Source: a phage. From it: 64,000 nt of DNA. This document shows positions 1 through 64,000 of this stretch, piece by piece; position 1 is the stretch's first letter; each line of letters opens with the position of its first letter. The stretch lies in assembly GCA_012813795.1 (NCBI GenBank), contig GCA_012813795.1_4087.1, one strand, 5' to 3'. Both the position numbers and the translations under genes were made by a program. The notes beneath the pieces were generated by a model, which worked only from the letters and a program-made list of their open reading frames with translations, did no database searches and was not told where the DNA came from.

Positions 1-310
1 GTATACAATTCCTAAGAGAACTCGTTGTGTAAGTACTTAAATCATTTTCTGTAATGAAATGAACATTCCAGTTGACTTGTACTGGATAATCTCGTTTAAA
101 AAACAAAACTACTATAGGTCTTTCAGTACTCAATGCATTAATAAATTCGATTACACTATCATAGATTTCAGTACGGATATTATTGGTTTTTATTGTACTT
201 ATGTAATTCTGTTTAATTCCGTGCTCTTCATTGATTTGATACTCAAAAAACTTTTTAAACAATTCTTTGGTTAAATCAGATGAATTTTTAATATTCGTTG
301 CGTTACTCAT
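1..310 (-). CDS. hypothetical protein, partial (runs off window start); N-terminus MSNATNIKNSSDLTKELFKK
   Basis: Minus-strand ATG at 310-308 followed by more than 100 sense codons to position 1 with no stop; absent from ORF track because no stop is inside the window; hydrophilic K/E-rich composition. Confidence 0.4.
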   Translation of the reverse strand, partial: MSNATNIKNSSDLTKELFKKFFEYQINEEHGIKQNYISTIKTNNIRTEIYDSVIEFINALSTERPIVVLFFKRDYPVQVNWNVHFITENDLSTYTTSSLRNCI

Positions 311-400
311 TCACTTCGTTCTCTCGTAACTCAAGAATTCGTTTCGTTATCTACGATAACTCACTCATTCATATTAATTAATATTGTATTGTACTTTTAA

Positions 401-950
401 AGATTGACGGGATTTGTTGAGGACATTTTCATCCCCCCGCAGGGGAATGATATTAAAAAAGAACCAATGAAGGTTCTTGATTTTGACGCTGATGGCATCG
501 GAATTTATCGAATTGCGAATTTCTCCATATTTTGGACGGTTCAAGGGTGTCCAATTTTTGGAGAACGAAAGCGGGTTGCTCTGTTTCTCTCTATCGCAGT
601 CATATGCAACGGTCGCAGGTATTTTCATCCCCTGCACTAAAGTACTGGAACTATTCGATCAATTCAGTACTCGTTTTACTCAATTTTTGGGTGCAACTTT
701 CCCGTAGAAAAATTGACCGCTTGTTTTAAGTAAAACTCCCTTAGCAAATCTGGTAAGGTGCGATCCTTATACATCTATCGAGGAACTCTCTGTATGCTTA
801 TCGGAGTTCTTTATTGAGCCGTGTCGCCGTGTGATCCGTGTCTTATTTCGCGTTTGTATGAATGCACTTGGATGGTACTAACGGGTTTCTTTTGCTCATC
901 GCCTCAGTGGGAAGGCTCATCTATCCTTTACATTTTCAAGAGAAGTAGGT
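401..950. repeat. Direct-repeat element copy A: long non-coding region with invariant cores at 567-597 and 736-771 and a GC hairpin at 433-445
   Basis: About 720 bp without a convincing ORF; shares blocks with 63490-63965 including identical 31-nt and 36-nt cores at the same spacing (139 vs 141 nt) and a stem whose loop differs between copies. Confidence 0.55.
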
Positions 951-1030
951 TCTTCTTGTCCGTTGTTAAAACGTCCACTGACATTTTCCATTACAATATA
1001 ATTATAGCACAATATAAAGTATTGTCCCAA

Positions 1031-1444
1031 TTACATATAAACTTTTTTCAATTCTTTGCTGCTTCGTTCAAATACTGTTTCAATGAACTCAATATCCTGA
1101 AGAAGCTGTAGAGTACTGGCATCTGTCTCATTGCGTGACACATTTCTGTACTTTTGTTCAGGGTGATTGAATACCACCTTGACTACACTATTTAGGTCTA
1201 CAAAATTTGACGTTTTTTTCGTATAGGAAGCCTGAAGCTTAATATACTTCCCATTATCTTGTAGATTAGTTTTATGAATTAGTTCTTCAATACCTGTAAG
1301 ATGTAAATAACTATCTTCTTCTTTGACGAATGTAATAGTCAACAGTACTGTCTTTTCGTCTCCCATGTCAGAGATATTTTTCACAGCACTAACAATTTCC
1401 AAGTTTGAAAAATCTAAATCTTTAAGCATTACACATATTTCCAC
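1031..1444 (-). CDS. hypothetical protein
   Basis: 137-aa minus-strand ORF, hydrophilic composition, packed with neighbours. Confidence 0.5.
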   Translation of the reverse strand: MEICVMLKDLDFSNLEIVSAVKNISDMGDEKTVLLTITFVKEEDSYLHLTGIEELIHKTNLQDNGKYIKLQASYTKKTSNFVDLNSVVKVVFNHPEQKYRNVSRNETDASTLQLLQDIEFIETVFERSSKELKKVYM

Positions 1445-1785
1445 AAAGTTCTATAAGTGATAATTTCTTCTCTGGTAACAGAAACTTCATTGCACTTAAC
1501 ACCATCCGTTTCATACTCGAATGGTCGTTGTGGTCGATATTCTGTTAAACCTCGTTCATACGTACAATGATAATACTTGTTCTCGTTTATGTCAAGAAAA
1601 ACAAGATCAAATTCTTCAGTAAATCGTCTATGCCCTTTACTTTCATTGCAAATGATTTTGTACTGCACATCTGGACCAAAGGTTTCAGTACTGTCATCCC
1701 ATGCACCATAGTCAGTATACAAATCATCTTCATCTAACTCTGCAAGATGCCACATTAACTGTGGTAAAAAGATTTTTGATTTCAT
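1429..1785 (-). CDS. hypothetical protein
   Basis: 118-aa ORF; GGAG 8 nt upstream of ATG; 16-bp overlap with downstream gene. Confidence 0.5.
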   Translation of the reverse strand: MKSKIFLPQLMWHLAELDEDDLYTDYGAWDDSTETFGPDVQYKIICNESKGHRRFTEEFDLVFLDINENKYYHCTYERGLTEYRPQRPFEYETDGVKCNEVSVTREEIITYRTLWKYV

Positions 1786-1838: not shown

Positions 1839-2450
1839 TTACTCATGTTTATCCAACAGCTTTTGTGCCTTTTTTAATGCTTTCATGTGTCGCCCGTACT
1901 CACGAACATGCCACAGATGATCGTTATCCCATAGCTCTTGACGCAATTTACGTTCTTCGATCATTTCTGGTGTAGGACGTTTACTTTCCTTCTCAATCTT
2001 ATTGAAATAACGATTCATATGTTCTTCAAGTAGATTTAGGTTTTTGACTTTCTCAAGGAATTCATCAACCGTTTCAGTTTTATTTGAACGCATTTGGTTG
2101 CATCTTGAGCACATTGTATTAAAGTTGGACTCCAAATCAGCACCACCTTTAGATGCAAGATGATTATGATCTACAGTCATCATAACTTCATAAAGACCAC
2201 ATACTGCATACACATTTAAATGCGGTTTACCATATACCGGATCACTACAGTTAGAACGTTCGATTCGAACTTCTGTAGCCTCGATGCCACAAGCAATGCA
2301 CTTACAATTCTTAACGAATGTTAGTACTTTTTGTGGAAAGTATCTGAAAGTAATACCATTATAAGTATAACGTTTCATTTTGGTACTAGTATGATTGAGT
2401 TCATCTAGTAAACTCAATTTGGTTACATAATAAACATGATATTTAGACAT
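1839..2450 (-). CDS. HNH-family endonuclease, possibly a free-standing homing endonuclease
   Basis: Cys-rich core CIACG ... VDHNHLASKGGADLESNFNTMCSRCN matches the HNH His/Asn metal-finger pattern; own terminator downstream. Confidence 0.55.
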   Translation of the reverse strand: MSKYHVYYVTKLSLLDELNHTSTKMKRYTYNGITFRYFPQKVLTFVKNCKCIACGIEATEVRIERSNCSDPVYGKPHLNVYAVCGLYEVMMTVDHNHLASKGGADLESNFNTMCSRCNQMRSNKTETVDEFLEKVKNLNLLEEHMNRYFNKIEKESKRPTPEMIEERKLRQELWDNDHLWHVREYGRHMKALKKAQKLLDKHE

Positions 2451-3617: not shown

Positions 3618-4859
3618 TTATTTTTTACCATACCACTGCATTTCTCGAATATCGATTAGAACTTTTGCAGCTAGTTGAATGTTTGGTTTCTTTGGTAGAA
3701 CTGACTTAGGATACACCACATTGCGGATATAGTCAACCTTTTCATTGAAATAATCCATGACTTCTTCATATTTCCATTTGCCGTTGCGGATATCCATTAG
3801 CATATCAGCATCAGGACGTTTAACAAGGATAATACCGCTTTGTAATGCTTCTTCGGCACTATTTAGCAGCCTGATCGTATGCATAGCATGTTTTAAATCG
3901 AAGCCGTGCTGTGATTCCATAAGAGCACGTTTAGCATTACGATTCTCTTTCCATTTGTGATAACTTTTACGGTTCTCACTGTTCTCACTGTATTCTTTTT
4001 CATTGAATTTGACAATGAGTTCAGGTCGCACTTTCAATTCTTCAGTACTGCGTTCTTTGTTGAAATAACGTAAAGAACCATCAGCGTTAATTGTACTTTC
4101 ATTAGGATTGATAATAACACCAAAGATATTTTCACCGTAATGAATTAATTCGTACCCATTGTTATAATCCAATAAGTTGAAATCACGGTCTAGTACTTTA
4201 TCAGTACTGTAATTATGTACTAAACGTACAAAATGATACTGTTTCAACGGATGAGTTGAAACTAACTGCAATGAAGTATCACGCATGTATTTTTCAAAAT
4301 CAATTTTCTTAGCATTAAATGGATGTAGTTTAGAAGTATCTAAACGTTCTACCAAATAGTGTGGGAAATTTTCATACATCCATGCTAAAGTTTCATCTAC
4401 TGGAAAATCTTCTAAGATTTCATTTAGACGTTTTTCAGCAATACGCTCTTTATCCATCCACCCGTGGTGATTAGACATACGCTTAACCTGATTATATGCA
4501 TAACCGGTATAAGAGAATGCAATCTTAGAACTAAGTAATTGTTGATTGAATGTACGTAGATAATCATAGATTTCAGTACTTTCTACGATGTGTTCAGGAT
4601 CGACCCATAGTGATTCAAGAATATTTGGGTTAGCCTCTGTATATAGTCTTAAGTACTGGTTTAGTTCATAGAATTTAGTATCTTCTTCTCTTGAATCAGA
4701 AACTTCCTTTACATTATAAAAAGGCGTAAGGATGAATTCTTTGTTAGCAAGAAAAATACCACGATAATCCGTATCACTTTCAGGTGTACTGGTTCCATAC
4801 GCTTGTGAACCTGCTAAGTGCTTCACAATTGTTTGTTCAAGAAATTTGTTATTATTCAT
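3618..4859 (-). CDS. Pol-beta-superfamily nucleotidyltransferase (RlaP/PF10127-like)
   Basis: N-terminal HLAGSQAYGTSTPESDTDYRGIF fits the GS-x(9-13)-D-x-D minimal nucleotidyltransferase motif; 413 aa. Confidence 0.5.
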   Translation of the reverse strand: MNNNKFLEQTIVKHLAGSQAYGTSTPESDTDYRGIFLANKEFILTPFYNVKEVSDSREEDTKFYELNQYLRLYTEANPNILESLWVDPEHIVESTEIYDYLRTFNQQLLSSKIAFSYTGYAYNQVKRMSNHHGWMDKERIAEKRLNEILEDFPVDETLAWMYENFPHYLVERLDTSKLHPFNAKKIDFEKYMRDTSLQLVSTHPLKQYHFVRLVHNYSTDKVLDRDFNLLDYNNGYELIHYGENIFGVIINPNESTINADGSLRYFNKERSTEELKVRPELIVKFNEKEYSENSENRKSYHKWKENRNAKRALMESQHGFDLKHAMHTIRLLNSAEEALQSGIILVKRPDADMLMDIRNGKWKYEEVMDYFNEKVDYIRNVVYPKSVLPKKPNIQLAAKVLIDIREMQWYGKK

Positions 4860-5257
4860 AGATGTAATGTTAGCTCCTTAAGAAACCCATTATAGTACTT
4901 CATGAAATCTTTATGAAGAACTTTGTATTCTGATAAACTAAAACCTAGATTGATTATAGTATCTTCTTGAAAGAACTTTTCTTCTTCGGATAAATCCAGA
5001 GAAATAGATTGTTTGCCACCATTTAATATTTTAGTAAAGTGTAAACCATCATTATTGATTTCAACGTACATGAAGTTATTTTCACGGTCACGAGGGCAAA
5101 CAATATTAATGGAACTTTCACCAGTATCATCGTATTCGAATGATATTACATCATACTCCCCGATTCCATAAAATTGTTTATCACTCTTGTAACCACTATA
5201 TACTTTTTTATACGAATCCATCTGTCTTATGGTGCTATACACATCATCAAGATCCAT
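4856..5257 (-). CDS. hypothetical protein
   Basis: 133-aa ORF, 4-nt overlap with upstream gene. Confidence 0.45.
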   Translation of the reverse strand: MDLDDVYSTIRQMDSYKKVYSGYKSDKQFYGIGEYDVISFEYDDTGESSINIVCPRDRENNFMYVEINNDGLHFTKILNGGKQSISLDLSEEEKFFQEDTIINLGFSLSEYKVLHKDFMKYYNGFLKELTLHL

Positions 5258-5260
5258 ATA

Positions 5261-5764
5261 TTAACTCCTGTAATATTGTAAGTATTCGTTCTTTGCATCA
5301 TCCAATTCTTTTTGTTCCTGAATTTTCTTGTCGATATCTTTCACGTTAGTAATACTGTTATATAGTGCGTGAAGTACAAGAAAATCAGATACAGAAGTTG
5401 AAAAATCCTTCCACCCACCCGACATTTTAATACGCACACGTATATCACGTCTGTCCATCCAGAACATGAACCCTCGATTCCCACGTAAATCATTAATCAT
5501 ATACACTTTAAAACAAGAATCTCGTGTGCTGCTTTCTCGTCTTTCAAAATCTACATGAATACTGAACAAGTTTTTTGAACAGTACTTACAAAATGCATAG
5601 ATAACAGGATCACATTTTGAAAGAAGATATTTGTTTTGAATAATTTCTCTGCGATCTTTGTCTGATTTAATATTAGGTACTAATAAAGTACTTTTGTTTA
5701 AAATCAACGCAACTAAGTACTGAAGAATATCATTATCTTTTACTTTATGTTTACCGAAGATCAT
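5261..5764 (-). CDS. hypothetical protein, member 3 of tandem paralog triplet
   Basis: Shares S/T-D-x-D-R-R/K ... I ... K ... LS motif and C-terminal charged helix with 5764-6264 and 6274-6834. Confidence 0.5.
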   Translation of the reverse strand: MIFGKHKVKDNDILQYLVALILNKSTLLVPNIKSDKDRREIIQNKYLLSKCDPVIYAFCKYCSKNLFSIHVDFERRESSTRDSCFKVYMINDLRGNRGFMFWMDRRDIRVRIKMSGGWKDFSTSVSDFLVLHALYNSITNVKDIDKKIQEQKELDDAKNEYLQYYRS

Positions 5765-6264
5765 TAGTATAATCCTTTTAGTTTATTAAATTCATTAAGT
5801 TTATGCTGCTCGTATTCTAACTTCTTGTACTTTGTTTCAAGCTCACGAAGTGCAACGAGTAAATGAAACAAAAACATTTGTTCATGTTTAGGTAGAATAT
5901 TCGCATCTCCGTTAATATAAACAAATGTATGTTTTTCATCATAATCTTTAGATGAATATGTTACTGCATTAAAATCAACCTTAGTTTCGGTATCAAACAA
6001 TTTTACACGGTTGATATGATTACCATATATGAATACTGGTTCATATAACCAACGTTCACCGTATGGTTCTTTAACTAGGTCAGTGATTAGTTTCATTAGA
6101 GAATGAGAACTTAACATTTCTTTAATTTTAAGTATAGTTCTACGATCTTCATCAGTACTGATAATTTCTTTTAAAGAATAGCTTTTCATCAGTACTGGAA
6201 GAATTAATGTACACCACTCTACATTTTCTCTTTTGTGATCATTATTTTTCTTTTTGAAAAACAT
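5764..6264 (-). CDS. hypothetical protein, member 2 of tandem paralog triplet
   Basis: KEIISTDEDRRTILKIKEMLSSH aligns with KDFVKTDNDRKSLIELKYKLSKH in the upstream paralog. Confidence 0.5.
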   Translation of the reverse strand: MFFKKKNNDHKRENVEWCTLILPVLMKSYSLKEIISTDEDRRTILKIKEMLSSHSLMKLITDLVKEPYGERWLYEPVFIYGNHINRVKLFDTETKVDFNAVTYSSKDYDEKHTFVYINGDANILPKHEQMFLFHLLVALRELETKYKKLEYEQHKLNEFNKLKGLY

Positions 6265-6902: not shown

Positions 6903-9671
6903 TTAACTCCAACGAGTACCAGATTGTGATGGTAACCCAGAACTAGCTGGGATAGCAGAACCACGATTGTAGGTACTTGGGCGGTATAGCAAGAATCTGG
7001 ACACTTTTTCAGACTCGATTGATGCAATACCATTAGCATCAGTTACTATCTTACCAATGTAGGTTGATGTCATAGTTTCTGATAATTGATATAGTGATAT
7101 CTGATACGAAGCTGTAGATGTACCTCTATCCATAACCGCATATATGTAGAATGTTGAATTATCTGGTGTAGTACTTATGGTAGATAAGTCTATCATAGTC
7201 GGTGGTATCTTTGCAAACTTTCCACCCAAGAAAACTGGTACTTCTTGTGAAAAGTACACGTTGAACCCTTGTGCCACATCCTGTGAAGCAACAACTAAGT
7301 ACTGTGATATCGTTTCATTACCAGATATTAGTTTATCCATATCTGCTTCAGTAGTACCACATACAGCAAAAACTGATTTAGTTTGATAATCGTTTTTGTT
7401 CATTTGGTAATATCCAAACCCAATCCCTGGAATTGTACCTATATCAAATTGTGCGTTTGAAATATAAGTTGTTTCCATATATCGTTGACTTGAAATAATA
7501 CCATTTTTCACTTTAGCAATCATGTTAGGATAACGAGTCCATCCTGGGGTATCAATGCCATATAAAATGTTCACACCTAAGTAGTTAAAACCACTAAACT
7601 TAGCAACCGTCATACCAGCCCAACGTTTGATCATTTCATTTGGTGAAATTTGGAATGTATTCGTGATTGATGTATATCTTGCTGTATCAACACTAATACC
7701 ACGTAAAATTATAGTACCACTTGTACCCAGTGCACTACATGATATTTCGGAAAAAATAATATAACACACGTTGGTAGTACCGTTTAGTGCAGAAGTGACT
7801 GCAATAGATTTAGAATATGTAGTATCAGGTACATAATAAAAAACAGTTTTATGTTCAGTTATTCCAGTCAATCCAGCTTTAGCAACGGCATTATAACCTA
7901 TACCTGATAATGTAGTTCCTGAAATTTCATATCTATCACTGTTAAAGTCCATTGTAACAGGGTCGAATTTTCCATAAGCTGGTTTATCGATACCTTCTAT
8001 TAAAGAAGATCCATAAGTGCTGACATTTCCATTGGCATCAACCAATGTTACCATACCTGCATATTTGTAATCAGTACTTAAATAGTGTCTATTACCTGAT
8101 GGTGCAAAACCATTCATTGTGGTATTTTGTTCCAAGTTTTTATAACTATAAGTTGGATTCTCACCTATTTCAGTAAAAACTGTACTATCATAACCATAAG
8201 AAATTCCATCAGCAGTACCAGAACATGCAACAAGTATCTTACGTTTATCAACGAAACGAACACCTATTAAGTTTTCACCTACAGGTGAACCATAAACGGG
8301 CATTACTTCTACGCGTTTTAAATTACTACCAGTACGTGTTTTAGCAACCCAACTATCATAAGGTGTACCAGAAACTTTGTATGTTTGTACTGCATAGGTC
8401 GGCATGGATGACCATCTTGCTTTGGTAGTGAAAACAAAACCATCAGAAGTTTGACAGATTGAACCATAGTTACCAAGTGCACCATCATAAAACCCTGTAA
8501 AGTTTTCCATATTGATTGAAAACGGGTTTCTCACTGTTATACTGCCAGTTGATGCATTAGCTGATACTCTGATTGGACCACGTTCAGAACCGTCAAGTGT
8601 CATTGTTTTAGTACTGATATCATATGTAAAGCTAATGCCAAGTGAATATACACTAGATGTTTTTGTTTCAGTAAAGACACGAAACCCTGGATATATCGCT
8701 ACTCTTATTTTTGTACCATCAGGGCTAAGAACTGCTTGGGTATTAAACGTGTAATGTTGCCAGTCATCGATTTTGGAAACCCCATTATCATATGCTATTA
8801 GTGCATCACCACCTGAACCCAATACTGAATAGCTATCATAAACGCGAATATTATTTGAAGCTGAATATGTTACATCTCGTATAGTTCTTCCTGAATAACC
8901 ACTAATTTGTGTTACTGTCGAAACTGAACCAGTATTAAATGCAGTTAAAGGTACTGTGTATATGATAAATGCACAACCGCGAACACTATTAAGAACACTT
9001 GAATCCCTACACCATATATAAACTGAATCATTTACGATGTGTGCATAGATTGGTTTATTTGTTATTGCTGTTTTTGGAATTCTACAGTGTTTATGAGCAG
9101 ATTCATTTAATGTTTCATTTGTTAATGTAAGGTAGTATGATGCTCTATCAGTTGATTCCCAAAATAGTAATTCATATGCATTTGACCCATAAAATTCATA
9201 AATGTAATCAGTGCTTGGTAGCACAGAAGGTCTATACATCGTGTTGGTTGTAATTATATTATCTTGAGTTAGTGTTTCTATATCTCTTATATTTTTAATA
9301 TAAGCATAATAGTAACCATACGAACTTCCATTTGTACCTGCACGTAAAATTACACCAGTACCATCATTTTCAATGATACAAGGTTGCATTATTTTTGCAA
9401 ATGAAAAGGAAGAAGCACCTTCAAATGTACCGTTAATACTCATCGGTAGGTAATCTTGATCACCTACCCTTGAAACTGGAAGCATATCAAACATCTGATC
9501 TACTTCCGCTTTGTCATAATATTGGTAAGTGATTTTACCAGCAGAATCAGCAGGGAATCCATTAAAGGAACGTAATGCATACTTTCCATTAATTTTCAAA
9601 TTCCCTAGTATTTCTGCGTTTCCTATAATTCGTCTCGAAGCCATATATATTCCTTTACCATTCTGTCCCAC
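6903..9671 (-). CDS. Fibre-like beta-rich structural protein (tail fibre / receptor-binding candidate), paralog 2
   Basis: 922 aa, S/T/G/N/Y-rich; N-terminal and C-terminal regions shared with 10256-12955, central region divergent. Confidence 0.5.
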   Translation of the reverse strand: MGQNGKGIYMASRRIIGNAEILGNLKINGKYALRSFNGFPADSAGKITYQYYDKAEVDQMFDMLPVSRVGDQDYLPMSINGTFEGASSFSFAKIMQPCIIENDGTGVILRAGTNGSSYGYYYAYIKNIRDIETLTQDNIITTNTMYRPSVLPSTDYIYEFYGSNAYELLFWESTDRASYYLTLTNETLNESAHKHCRIPKTAITNKPIYAHIVNDSVYIWCRDSSVLNSVRGCAFIIYTVPLTAFNTGSVSTVTQISGYSGRTIRDVTYSASNNIRVYDSYSVLGSGGDALIAYDNGVSKIDDWQHYTFNTQAVLSPDGTKIRVAIYPGFRVFTETKTSSVYSLGISFTYDISTKTMTLDGSERGPIRVSANASTGSITVRNPFSINMENFTGFYDGALGNYGSICQTSDGFVFTTKARWSSMPTYAVQTYKVSGTPYDSWVAKTRTGSNLKRVEVMPVYGSPVGENLIGVRFVDKRKILVACSGTADGISYGYDSTVFTEIGENPTYSYKNLEQNTTMNGFAPSGNRHYLSTDYKYAGMVTLVDANGNVSTYGSSLIEGIDKPAYGKFDPVTMDFNSDRYEISGTTLSGIGYNAVAKAGLTGITEHKTVFYYVPDTTYSKSIAVTSALNGTTNVCYIIFSEISCSALGTSGTIILRGISVDTARYTSITNTFQISPNEMIKRWAGMTVAKFSGFNYLGVNILYGIDTPGWTRYPNMIAKVKNGIISSQRYMETTYISNAQFDIGTIPGIGFGYYQMNKNDYQTKSVFAVCGTTEADMDKLISGNETISQYLVVASQDVAQGFNVYFSQEVPVFLGGKFAKIPPTMIDLSTISTTPDNSTFYIYAVMDRGTSTASYQISLYQLSETMTSTYIGKIVTDANGIASIESEKVSRFLLYRPSTYNRGSAIPASSGLPSQSGTRWS

Positions 9672-14332: not shown

Positions 14333-16138
14333 TTACATGTGTTGTATACGTTGAATAACTTCAGCTTGTTTACCTTTATTGAACGGGCGACTATTTGGGG
14401 CACTAAGATATCCCGAAACTCTGCGAATAACCGACATTGTGCGTTCATTGCGGTTGTCACATACCGGACAATGGAAACCATTTTTATCTACACTAAATTC
14501 ACCCTCAAAATCACATTCAAAACACTTATCGACCTTCTGATTAATACCAAAATATGGAATTTTAGTATAAGCAAAATTTATTAATGTTTCAAGTGCTTGT
14601 ATATTATTAGCTAGATTTGGTGTTTCAACATAGCTAATATTACCACCATTGCTTAGATAAGCAAAGTTTTCCTCATAATCCCATTTAGCAAAAGGTGTAC
14701 TTTCAACCCATACTGGTTGATGGAATGAGTTAGTGATAAAGTCACGTTTCAGTACTGAAGGATGTTTTGCCTCAATACAACGTGCAAATTTATAACATAG
14801 TGATTCTGCTGGTGTACCGTAAAGACTAAATGCAATGTTACTCTCTTTTTTGAATTCATCACATTTTGCTTTCATGTAGTTCAAAATACTCATACAGAAC
14901 TCTTTACTAATAGAACCAGTGAGGATCTCTGAACACTCAGATAACCCAACATAACCAATACTGATACTAGCATAACCATTATAAAATAAATGGTCAATAG
15001 TGTCTTCAGGATCAAGACGTGCAATCGCACCTTCAGCGAAAAGTATAGGGTTTTGTTTTGCCTTTGTACCTTTTAAACGTTCTACACGGTTCATCTGTGC
15101 TCTGTAAGCAATATTCATGTGCTCATCAATCTTATCAAAGAAATCACCATCAGACTCACTCTCAAGAGCAATTAGTGGTAAGTTGATAGACACAACGCCA
15201 AGGTTGAATCTACCATTGTATTTTTCTTCTCCTTGTATATTTTCCCATTTCCCTAAGAAACTTCTGCATCCCATAGGAGTAACAGGAATAGTTGTGCTTC
15301 CAGTAACTTTTTGATTCAAAGGTACGGATACAAAATCAGGATAGATGCGTTTAGCTGCACAACGCATAGCTAATTGTTTTAAGTCATAATTACAATCAGT
15401 ACTGTTCATATTAATTCCATCCTGAAGAAAGAATATTACTTTAGGAAATACTGGAGTAATCTTATCTTTACCTAGTCCATTTTCATGTACTTTCAAATAT
15501 TGTTCAGTGATTAGTTTTTCAAATTTAGATGTACCTAATCCTAAACTCAAAGAAATGAACGCAGCCTGGCCATTAGTACTGATCATTGAGTTTGTTTGAT
15601 ATAGAATTGTTTGACAACCGTCATAAACTTCCTTACGCAACTCATCTTCGATGAATTCAGTGCTAAGATTGTATTTCTTTTGTTTTTCTAGGAGTTTATC
15701 CCATGACTTTTGTACATATGGTGCAAGGCCAGTGTCAATGTGAGCCAACGACTGACCACCGTATTGTGAGCTTGCAACAGCCTGAACGATCTGGGTTAGT
15801 ACTGTACAAGCTACCCCAAAGCTTTTTGGTTCTTCAATCTTGGCACAACCAATCATGAAGCCATTAGCAAGCATATCAGGATAATTAACTAAACAACAGT
15901 TTGTTAATGGGCTAATGTAATAGTCTAAATCATGAATATGACCGTAACCTTCATTATGCCACTTCATCAATTCATCAGGAATCACATCTTGGGAATAATG
16001 TTTAGAAAGAATACCTGCCAATAAATCACGATGTGTATTAACACATTTAGCGTCTTTATTTGCATTTTCGTTTGTTAAATCAGCGTTACTCTGGTTGAGG
16101 AAGTTAGTTACGTCCGTATATAATTTATCTATTTGCAT
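14333..16138 (-). CDS. nrdD: Anaerobic ribonucleoside-triphosphate reductase (class III), intact and uninterrupted
   Basis: 601 aa; C-terminal Zn ribbon CFECDFEGEF ... CPVCDN and glycyl radical motif RRVSGYLSAPNSRPFNKGKQAEV. Confidence 0.9.
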   Translation of the reverse strand: MQIDKLYTDVTNFLNQSNADLTNENANKDAKCVNTHRDLLAGILSKHYSQDVIPDELMKWHNEGYGHIHDLDYYISPLTNCCLVNYPDMLANGFMIGCAKIEEPKSFGVACTVLTQIVQAVASSQYGGQSLAHIDTGLAPYVQKSWDKLLEKQKKYNLSTEFIEDELRKEVYDGCQTILYQTNSMISTNGQAAFISLSLGLGTSKFEKLITEQYLKVHENGLGKDKITPVFPKVIFFLQDGINMNSTDCNYDLKQLAMRCAAKRIYPDFVSVPLNQKVTGSTTIPVTPMGCRSFLGKWENIQGEEKYNGRFNLGVVSINLPLIALESESDGDFFDKIDEHMNIAYRAQMNRVERLKGTKAKQNPILFAEGAIARLDPEDTIDHLFYNGYASISIGYVGLSECSEILTGSISKEFCMSILNYMKAKCDEFKKESNIAFSLYGTPAESLCYKFARCIEAKHPSVLKRDFITNSFHQPVWVESTPFAKWDYEENFAYLSNGGNISYVETPNLANNIQALETLINFAYTKIPYFGINQKVDKCFECDFEGEFSVDKNGFHCPVCDNRNERTMSVIRRVSGYLSAPNSRPFNKGKQAEVIQRIQHM

Positions 16139-63361: not shown

Positions 63362-63489
63362 TATTATTCCTTTTTAGGAAACATCAAATAATGTACTCGA
63401 TATTGATTTCGTTTGCACTCAATCAACATCAGTAGAATTAATTCATCGCTACGCTCTGAATAATTCTAATAGTACTAAATGGTTTTAAT

Positions 63490-63965
63490 TAATATTGACG
63501 AGGTTTGGAAGAGCATATTTCATCCCCCCACTGGGGGAAAGAATTAAAATTTGACGCTGGTGGTCTTCACATATTTCATATCACGAATTCTCTTAACGAG
63601 GCGAAAGCGGGTTGCTCTGTTTCTCTCTATCGCGGTTCTTGTAGCAACGGTCGTCGGTCTTAAACATCCCGACACATAATACGAGTACCATATGAACAGT
63701 ACTGGTATTTGATTTCACCAAATTTTGGACGCAACTATCTTGTACAAATAGTTGACCGCAATTTCTAATGAAATCTCCCTTAGCAAATCTGGTAAGGTGC
63801 GATCCTTATATGTCTATCTAGGAACTCTCTGTGTGCTTATCGGAGTTCTTTATACAGCCGCATTGCCGTGAGGGGTTCATAATATGCCCACATCTGACGG
63901 GTTTCATCTGCTGTTCGTACTGAAAGGACTACTCATCTACCCTCTACATTTTCGAGTGGATTAGG
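63490..63965. repeat. Direct-repeat element copy B: invariant cores at 63603-63633 and 63774-63809, GC hairpin at 63524-63538
   Basis: No ORF of 60 aa or more in 63362-64000; same block order, spacing and conserved terminal segment as copy A. Confidence 0.55.
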
Positions 63966-64000
63966 CTCTTAATCATTTCCATATGGAACCTTTCAGGATT

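Follow-up and report, generated by a model that had tools for sequence, protein, structure and literature searches.

Our results suggest that the two long repeats at the ends of a 64,000-nucleotide stretch of phage DNA (NCBI GenBank assembly GCA_012813795.1, contig GCA_012813795.1_4087.1; the whole stretch is the window in what follows) are probably genes, each encoding a large structured noncoding RNA (ncRNA) of about 540–590 nt on the minus strand. The predicted RNA of the first repeat, copy A, occupies positions 405..994, and the RNA body of the second, copy B, positions 63496..63996. The RNA apparently represents a previously undescribed class of large, pseudoknotted, multicopy phage ncRNA; a literature search returned no description of it. 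We have little doubt that the repeats hold a conserved RNA structure. An initial annotation of the window had argued that they were a structured RNA or a recognition element and not drifting spacer DNA, and covariation, three covarying pseudoknots, a conserved promoter and the detection of both copies by a held-out covariance model all support that argument.

The structure was derived from a MAFFT alignment of 50 sequences in minus sense with a mean identity of 63%. In the RNAalifold consensus 92.6% of the cells are paired and 64 of 103 pairs have changed on both sides. A model-free covariation scan, together with inspection, added three pseudoknots and corrected two helices; the RNAalifold helices P4 (411–417/422–427), the old P5 (435–440/451–456) and 268–270/901–903 were replaced by covarying alternatives (P5 and the pseudoknot PK0). 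The final model has 114 pairs in 21 helices, including the three pseudoknots PK0, PK1 and PK2. It pairs 92.9% of the cells, compared with 74.5% in shuffled alignments and 37–43% when the partners are slid by one to three columns. Changes on both sides are seen in 82 of the 114 pairs (994 cells versus 296 in shuffles), the covariation score is 0.475 (0.170 shuffled), and the observed values were not equaled by any of 500 shuffles on any measure.

The most telling of these pairings are the pseudoknots. In PK0 the loop of the P1c hairpin (916–901 in copy A; 100% paired, two of three pairs covarying) is the 3′ strand of P1. In PK1 the loop of P3 pairs with the bases immediately 5′ of the invariant UAAGGGAG (798–794 with 747–743), and four of five pairs covary, as AGCA/UGCU, AUACC/GGUAU, UACAU/AUGUA and AUCG/CGAU. 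In PK2 the loop of P7 pairs with the strand directly 3′ of P11, about 150 nt away; all seven pairs covary and 99.7% of the cells are paired. PK2 is also specific to each paralog: AUCGAAU (659–653) with AUUCGAU (513–507) in copy A, UUCAUAU (63696–63690) with AUAUGAA (63581–63575) in copy B, and AUUGUAU/AUACAAU and AUUGCAU/AUGCAAU in two further copies, C and D, which lie elsewhere in the genome.

The same structure can be found without any knowledge of the window. A covariance model of the P8–P13 domain (119 positions, 26 pairs, 44 sequences), built with the window and all Asteriusvirus copies excluded, has exactly two matches in the window, both on the minus strand: 639..481 (99.7 bits, E 3.9e-19) and 63669..63549 (94.1 bits, E 5.8e-18). 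In Escherichia phage A4 (ON286972.1; 355,528 bp; Asteriusvirus) it also matches copy C (100 bits) and copy D (74 bits).

The RNA very likely lies on the minus strand, a conclusion drawn from how the pairs vary. Where Watson–Crick compensation is proven, wobble pairs fill 159 cells when the alignment is read in minus sense and 59 in plus sense. Several pairs alternate between a wobble and a Watson–Crick pair (G.U 33/A-U 17, U.G 26/C-G 23, U.G 38/C-G 11, U-A 28/U.G 22). Such alternations would become C.A mismatches on the plus strand and hence fit the minus strand only; beside the covarying pair of P12, for example, stands a pair that is G.U in 33 and A-U in 17 sequences. The consensus energy is −146 kcal/mol for the minus and −134 kcal/mol for the plus strand, and the z scores of single-sequence folds are −4.7 and −2.3, respectively.

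It is likely, although somewhat less so than the strand, that each element is an independent transcription unit. A promoter pointing into the element from its right-hand side is present in all 43 homologs with enough upstream DNA; 37 have a TATAAT −10 and 40 the TG extension. The pattern consists of TG(A/G)(A/G)AC(A/G), mostly 16–17 nt, and TGnTATAAT, and it also occurs at copy C despite the oppositely running neighbors. In copy A the −35-like TGGGACAA lies at 1022..1029 and the extended −10 GTGCTATAAT, found by a promoter scan, at 1001..1010, both on the minus strand, with a predicted start near 994. A “divergent RpoD-like” promoter with a TGAAACG −35 and a classic −10 is described for phages CBB and GAP32 in PMC5259590, and the promoter of the element, taken by itself, has the features of this class.

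At the other end of copy A, a terminator scan found the hairpin AAGAACC-UUCAUU-GGUUCUU followed by U6 (453..478, minus strand), which resembles an intrinsic terminator in minus sense only. The hairpin covaries; where it is mismatched, the plus strand reads C.A and the minus strand U.G. About 19–24 of the 50 aligned sequences, namely the copies of types B and D, lack it. Read from 994, the RNA of copy A would measure about 542 nt if it ended at the U-run at 453, and about 590 nt if it ran to the second CGUCA.

What the initial annotation had reported about the repeats was confirmed. The regions 311–1030 and 63362–64000 can be aligned over their full length with 76% column identity, and the longest run identical between copies A and B is 36 nt. 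Neither region contains a convincing open reading frame (ORF); the longest in the window are 87–96 aa with unusual starts. The 31-nt core occurs exactly twice in the window (567–597 and 63603–63633), and so does the 36-nt core, which had been placed correctly in copy A (736–771) but one base off in copy B, where it lies at 63775–63810. Neither core was matched in any of 100 shuffles, even with three mismatches allowed. The C6/G4–5 hairpin whose loop is unlike between the copies (433–445 versus 63524–63538), the ggaactc...gagttcc hairpin, the conserved terminal segment and the gaacc-aatgaa-ggttc hairpin found only in copy A can all be recovered from the sequence. Two points need revision. The element had been delimited as 401–950, but the functional unit is larger and runs on the minus strand from about 1030 (promoter) to about 405. 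And what had been described as a two-copy repeat belongs to a four-copy family in this genome. Copy B is truncated by the end of the window, with its promoter and 5′ hairpin beyond position 64000.

From 5′ to 3′ on the minus strand, copy A begins with a 5′ domain (901..981) formed by P1 (981–974/911–904), P1a (973–961), P1b (948–921) and PK0, with an invariant GAUGAG at 921–916. Both sides have changed in seven of eight pairs of P1, five of five of P1a and seven of eight of P1b. P2 (898–894/819–815; 100% paired, three of five pairs covarying) and P2a (884–881/830–827; 99.5%, two of four), together spanning 815..898, enclose a variable insertion and the invariant GCAnAnGAnACCCGU and ACGGCAAUGCGGC. 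The P3 hairpin (809–783), in which all five pairs covary, is the ggaactc/gagttcc hairpin already mentioned. The P5 hairpin (769–754; three of five pairs covarying) and the invariant UAAGGGAG (743–736) lie within the segment 736..809 that holds the 36-nt core; this core corresponds to P5, PK1 and UAAGGGAG. P6 (736–732/677–673), which can hold an optional inserted module, has changes on both sides in five of five pairs, and P7 is a 12-bp hairpin (671–641) in which all 12 pairs have changed on both sides.

The core domain (484..635) consists of P8 (635–615), P10 (610–599), P11 (598–594/518–514), P12 (591–567) and P13 (564–561/525–522). P8, P11 and P13 have four pairs each that changed on both sides. 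The 31-nt core corresponds to the internal loop of P12 (GAGAGAAACAGAGCAACCCGCUUUC), whose covarying pair is A-U in 26, G-C in 20, C-G in two, and G.U and U.G in one sequence each. The long-range helix P9 (GAC/GUC) is invariant and hence gives no covariation signal. The local hairpin P9′ (499–484), which ends in the first CGUCA and has at least four of five pairs formed in 43 of 50 sequences, is tentatively supported, its register varying in the alignment. An extra 3′ hairpin with a GUUAA loop is seen by eye in some lineages only and not in the copies of the window.

Beyond the terminator-like hairpin lies a 3′ module (405..451) made up of the P14 hairpin UCAUUCCCC-UGC-GGGGGGAUGA (451–428; 90% paired) and the invariant CAAAUCCCGUCA, which ends at 405. 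P14 shows C-G/U.G alternation (e.g., U.G 26/C-G 23), and with wobble in 60 cells as against A.C in 26, it is best read on the minus strand. The body of copy B, delimited by nhmmer and alignment, extends from P1 (63996–63989) to the second CGUCA (63500–63496). Its core 1 lies at 63627–63603, and its P14 hairpin CCCCC-AGU-GGGGGG (63519..63542) has no terminator hairpin ahead of it.

Two sequence modules recur within the RNA. An optional module similar to UACAAUAUAGAUCCGUC(C)AAAAUU lies in the P6 insertion in most members and again in the P13 insertion in A-type copies (731–678 and 560–526 of the window, minus strand), so that one sub-element appears to be reused at two sites of the RNA. A 12-nt direct repeat, ATTTTCATCCCC, occurs at 425–436 and 621–632; on the RNA strand it reads GGGGAUGAAAAU, once within the P8 loop and once on the 3′ side of P14, and it is confined to copy A.

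The DNA that follows the RNA has features of its own. At five loci from other genera it contains a conserved block, AAAATTCTTTGACATTCGAAGAATGGCAAAT, with a TTGACA −35-like hexamer inside an inverted repeat; the block is probably the promoter/operator of the next gene array. In the window a perfect inverted repeat, GTTATC-TAC-GATAAC (346–360), and repeated ACGAA motifs (311–400) lie between the distal end of copy A and a minus-strand start codon at 310, and similar palindromes follow copy C in A4 and 121Q. The palindrome at 346–360 may serve the downstream gene as an operator or as a leader hairpin.

Known RNAs do not account for the element. Rfam 15, whose families include GOLLD, ROOL, OLE, HEARO, RNase P, tmRNA, group I and II introns, 6S and riboswitches, gave no match in the whole window at gathering thresholds, a permissive Rfam search (window 1–1500 and four divergent loci) gave nothing within the element at E < 0.9, and ARAGORN found no tRNA or tmRNA in the window. 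A group I intron, which would interrupt a gene and have a P3–P9 core with a G-binding site, can be rejected: the element is intergenic with its own promoter, and there is no match to Rfam intron models. Resemblances to the hammerhead (GAUGAG), RNase P (ACAGAGCAAC), a T-loop (GUUCGAAU, in A-type PK2) and a Shine–Dalgarno sequence (UAAGGGAG) were likewise discarded, none being backed by Rfam or conserved across paralogs.

The RNA is widespread among jumbo phages of the PBECO4/121Q/GAP32/CBB type. BLAST searches with the paralogs A, B and C as queries matched 72, 62 and 71 phage records at 239–291 places, which amounts to 3–5 per genome. These phages infect Escherichia, Salmonella, Klebsiella, Yersinia, Erwinia, Serratia, Cronobacter, Pectobacterium and Xanthomonas. 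In some GenBank records the element is annotated with small hypothetical ORFs. Among all collected loci, including those from metagenomes, nhmmer identified 72 full-length copies, of which 51 are less than 95% identical to one another (mean pairwise identity 63%). In IMG/VR a 19-mer probe yielded 14 loci, an exact 23-mer probe 121Q only, and a search with the flanking proteins no match; a metagenome scan with a degenerate 20-mer probe yielded 92 loci. At six divergent metagenome loci the P8–P13 domain scores 89–95 bits with the covariance model and the 5′ half cannot be aligned by nhmmer. Hence, the family is broader than the cultured phages. Among 100,044 species genomes there are only three true copies (100–105 bits), in Enterobacteriaceae bacterium RIT714 (299-kb contig), Silvania hatchlandensis (185-kb contig) and locus L139; these are probably jumbo-phage DNA co-assembled with the host.

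The window is from a close relative or variant of A4 with insertions of about 2.4 kb. The two are 99.6–99.8% identical over both copies, the plus strand of the window corresponds to the minus strand of A4, and the spacing of copies A and B is 63,051 bp in the window as against 60,621 bp in A4; the indels relative to A4 amount to about 2.4 kb. In A4 the four copies share one orientation and lie at 65.1 kb (B), 125.7 kb (A), 205.5 kb (C) and 320.9 kb (D). The neighboring genes of copies A and B are all on the minus strand, and hence each element fills a gap of 0.6–0.7 kb in a co-directional run of genes. Copy B adjoins adenine-methyltransferase and cytidylyltransferase genes in the window, GAP32, XbC2 and Yersinia phage fHe-Yen9-04, and copy C adjoins EndoVII in A4 and GAP32. 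Since the neighbors of copy C run in the opposite direction, the orientation of the element follows the genome and not the local genes. With 4–5 copies per genome, the paralogs are diverged, co-oriented and syntenic across genera. A Pfam search of the proteins next to the copies gave only the uninformative DUF7325.

A few further observations concern the genomes themselves. A4 encodes sigma-70-family sigma factors (A4_181 and A4_187, at 14409–15371 and 17357–17635 of L119, and A4_529, at 6945–7277 of L118), and one of these genes lies just upstream of copy D. The factors are candidates to recognize the unusual TG(A/G)(A/G)AC −35 element. A 2-kb stretch of A4 (4139–6138) is without an annotated gene and contains neither a tRNA nor a copy of the RNA. 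Between 28001 and 36000 of the window, GC skew and AT skew are positive or near zero, while the rest of the window has negative GC skew; this part may be a block of opposite-strand or foreign genes.

What could the RNA do for the phage? Our tentative answer, which we hold to be possible but somewhat short of probable, is that it is an abundant structural RNA needed during infection that acts in trans, as the scaffold of a ribonucleoprotein (RNP), as an RNA-only assembly or as a ribozyme. We lean toward this answer because the density of invariant nucleotides left unpaired, together with tertiary pairing and strong promoters dedicated to the RNA, makes it look more like ROOL, GOLLD, OLE and RNase P than like a leader or primer. 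The RNA would be transcribed from its own conserved phage-type promoter, starting near 994, and in copies of types A and C transcription would partially terminate at the hairpin with U6. Several copies per genome would supply dosage. In a recombination-proficient, T4-like phage, selection would act against exchange between direct repeats. Such selection could account for helices that have diverged by compensatory change around functional cores that remain identical.

Several points weigh against the view that the repeats are genes for an RNA of this kind. First, the promoter, the ends and the strand of the RNA are predictions, and our literature search found no transcriptome for this group of jumbo phages. 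Second, the plus strand also yields a well-scoring consensus fold, since Watson–Crick helices are symmetric. Third, the conserved P14 and CGUCA module lies beyond the supposed terminator and copies of types B and D have no terminator, which makes the predicted 3′ end ambiguous. Fourth, in B-type copies a terminator-like hairpin separates the promoter from the RNA body. In B-type orthologs (121Q, GAP32 and a Yersinia phage; L006 at about 2796–2870, L021 at 2017–2046, L023 and L020) a strong hairpin with T6–7 follows directly after the −10, which would place a terminator-like structure at the very start of the predicted transcript; in the GAP32 record this hairpin and T-run are annotated as a rho-independent terminator. 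Fifth, the MAFFT alignment is imperfect in the variable insertions (P1a 79% paired, PK1 82%). Finally, diverged paralogs that are syntenic, co-oriented and close to the heads of gene arrays suit a role in cis at least as well.

A more specific, and rather unlikely, form of the trans-acting role concerns PK2. The 7–9-bp paralog-specific pairing could be an intermolecular kissing code that determines which copies join, so that the RNAs assemble into defined homo- or hetero-oligomeric, self-assembling or catalytic particles of the ROOL and GOLLD kind, which would act during infection. Covariation alone is compatible with PK2 forming within one molecule or between molecules.

Two explanations that place the same minus-strand RNA in cis are suggested by the spacing, synteny and co-orientation of the copies, by the P14/CGUCA module beyond the terminator and by the terminator-less B and D copies. 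We consider both improbable, and neither more so than the other. In the first, the RNA is the pre-primer of a replication origin, and each copy marks one of several origins in T4-like replication. The folded RNA would promote a persistent RNA–DNA hybrid near the conserved C4/G6 block and would then be processed to prime DNA synthesis, for which ColE1 RNA II and the R-loops at T4 oriF and oriG are parallels. The four copies of A4 are indeed spread over the genome (65, 126, 206 and 321 kb), co-oriented and syntenic across genera, the distance from promoter to G-run is about 550 nt, and two CGUCA boxes stand with an invariant G-run at the 3′ end. RNase H, a T4-type replisome and recombination proteins are among the products that the phage encodes, and in CBB the promoter class is associated with DNA-synthesis genes (PMC5259590). 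Yet three pseudoknots and many invariant unpaired motifs exceed what known R-loop priming needs, and P14 has RNA-type wobble, which means that the G-run pairs inside the RNA. We identified neither an AT-rich unwinding element nor an array of iterons. Across the window cumulative GC skew falls, with only a local reversal at 28–36 kb and no inflection at the copies, which is a weak test because skew follows gene strand.

In the second explanation, the RNA is a leader that modifies RNA polymerase (processive antitermination), so that transcription reads through the embedded terminator into the downstream gene array. The order of promoter, RNA, terminator and long co-directional gene array, which holds at copies A, B and D, is what one would expect, and so are the roughly 63 kb between copies B and A, where the genes are almost all on one strand, and the position of the A4 copies near array heads. 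The conserved module beyond the U6 terminator and the absence of the terminator from B and D copies point in the same direction. However, the genes next to copy C are convergent (A4_1 and A4_2; GAP32_242/243), the downstream genes differ between copies, and other sigma-70-like promoters intervene between the RNA and those genes. The known antitermination RNAs measure only about 70–130 nt, and none was matched in Rfam.

That the functional RNA is instead read in plus sense, which at copies A and B would make it antisense to the flanking genes, seems very improbable. RNAalifold does give a plus-strand fold of 85 pairs, 36 of them with compensation, and with several invariant G.U pairs. But the helices specific to this fold never covary and rest on those invariant G.U pairs. 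At the covarying pairs the plus sense has A.C in 77 and G.U in 41 cells, in line with the wobble count that favors the minus strand, and 33 of 50 sequences would have C.A at pair 703/723. Inspection revealed no well-conserved promoter on the plus strand, in contrast to 43 of 43 on the minus strand, and the hairpin with U6 is a terminator on the minus strand only.

Still less credit can be given to conservation at the level of DNA only, that is, to a duplicated regulatory region, a protein-binding array or hairpins in single-stranded DNA. The invariant blocks, the two CGUCA boxes and the palindromic C/G hairpin could be protein sites, and the elements do lie between transcription units. However, what compensation preserves in about 20 helices and three long-range pairings, which span up to about 150 nt, is pairing and not sequence, the strand-asymmetric tolerance of wobble is unexpected for sites in duplex DNA, and the predicted promoter would fire into the element. 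Duplicated promoters of paralogous genes, which the initial annotation had named as an alternative, do not fit either, since the genes next to different copies are unrelated.

A relic of a mobile element (MITE-like or associated with a homing endonuclease), one of the candidates put forward initially, or an unrecognized protein-coding gene can practically be dismissed: the element is multicopy, has an HNH gene about 800 bp from copy A and overlaps small hypothetical ORFs in some records, but each paralog occupies the same syntenic position across genera and shows neither terminal inverted repeats nor credible target-site duplications, the other copies have no associated HNH genes, all frames on both strands contain at least three stops (median 12) in all 50 homologs, whose longest ORFs (median 68 aa) are not conserved in position, and the substitutions compensate pairs and are not codon-like. 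The HNH gene itself is where it had been reported (1839–2450, minus strand), but it appears to have no relevance to the RNA. In A4 no HNH gene is annotated next to copies C or D, and a putative one, A4_397, lies about 3 kb from copy B.

If the repeats are RNA genes, as we favor, they would be of interest for several reasons. Large RNAs with so much conserved tertiary structure are rare, and the rRNAs, RNase P, group I and II introns, OLE, GOLLD and ROOL each revealed unusual biochemistry. This RNA sits in culturable E. coli phages that are under development for therapy (A4, PBECO4, 121Q, phAPEC6 and G17, among others), and hence it is open to genetics, probing and cryo-EM. The genomes of 62–72 existing isolates and the about 70 full-length copies from metagenomes give enough covariation for a detailed model. 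What appear in these genomes as 0.6–0.7-kb “gaps” or as annotated small hypothetical ORFs would be RNA genes. Should the RNA act in cis after all, it would identify the long-sought replication origins or transcription-unit organizers of 350-kb phage genomes.

How does the RNA compare with known systems? ColE1 RNA II is the pre-primer of a plasmid origin. It shares with our RNA a folded transcript of about 550 nt, a dedicated promoter, a G-rich element near the 3′ end and possibly an origin role in cis. Unlike RNA II, the phage RNA is present in four or five copies per genome and has a far more elaborate tertiary pairing. There is no homology between the two, no antisense regulator of the RNA I type was identified, and neither skew nor other evidence points to an origin at the copies. 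HK022 put, lambda PR′-qut-tR′ and the PR′ 6S RNA with tR′ are antitermination or promoter-proximal terminated transcripts. They resemble our element in that a promoter, an RNA element and a terminator precede a long gene array. These RNAs are several times smaller, however, and in the jumbo phages copy C faces convergent genes and independent promoters follow the element.

OLE RNA is a structured RNP RNA of about 600 nt from Bacillota (PMC12054373). Size and complexity are similar, and the jumbo-phage RNA would most likely act with protein partners, although no partner gene is evident beside its copies. Rfam scans indicate no homology, however, and OLE, whose protein partners are known, is encoded by a single-copy gene of the host. 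The four ncRNAs of jumbo phage PA5oct (ncRNA001–004) were defined by RNA-seq and are 236–619 nt long (PMC7318152). No homology was detected by nhmmer --max, signature motifs or the covariance model. Nevertheless, they too are long ORF-free transcribed regions, four per genome, in a distant relative of the same phage group; for our RNA, transcription is predicted.

GOLLD and ROOL, finally, often adjoin tRNA genes. The copies described here do not; the tRNA cluster of A4 (about 305.5–307.1 kb) is about 14 kb from copy D. They also differ in that they do not match the Rfam models of GOLLD and ROOL in sequence or structure, and in that they belong to virulent jumbo phages of Enterobacteria, Yersinia and Xanthomonas, with 4–5 diverged paralogs per genome and promoters of their own. 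The likeness lies in the RNA itself, which exceeds 500 nt, is phage-borne and combines many covarying helices and pseudoknots with invariant unpaired nucleotides. GOLLD and ROOL are large “ornate” ncRNAs of bacteria and phages, and cryo-EM shows that they form RNA-only homo-oligomeric assemblies (bioRxiv 10.1101/2024.12.08.627333). In the jumbo-phage RNA, too, the covarying “pseudoknots” could in principle be contacts between molecules.

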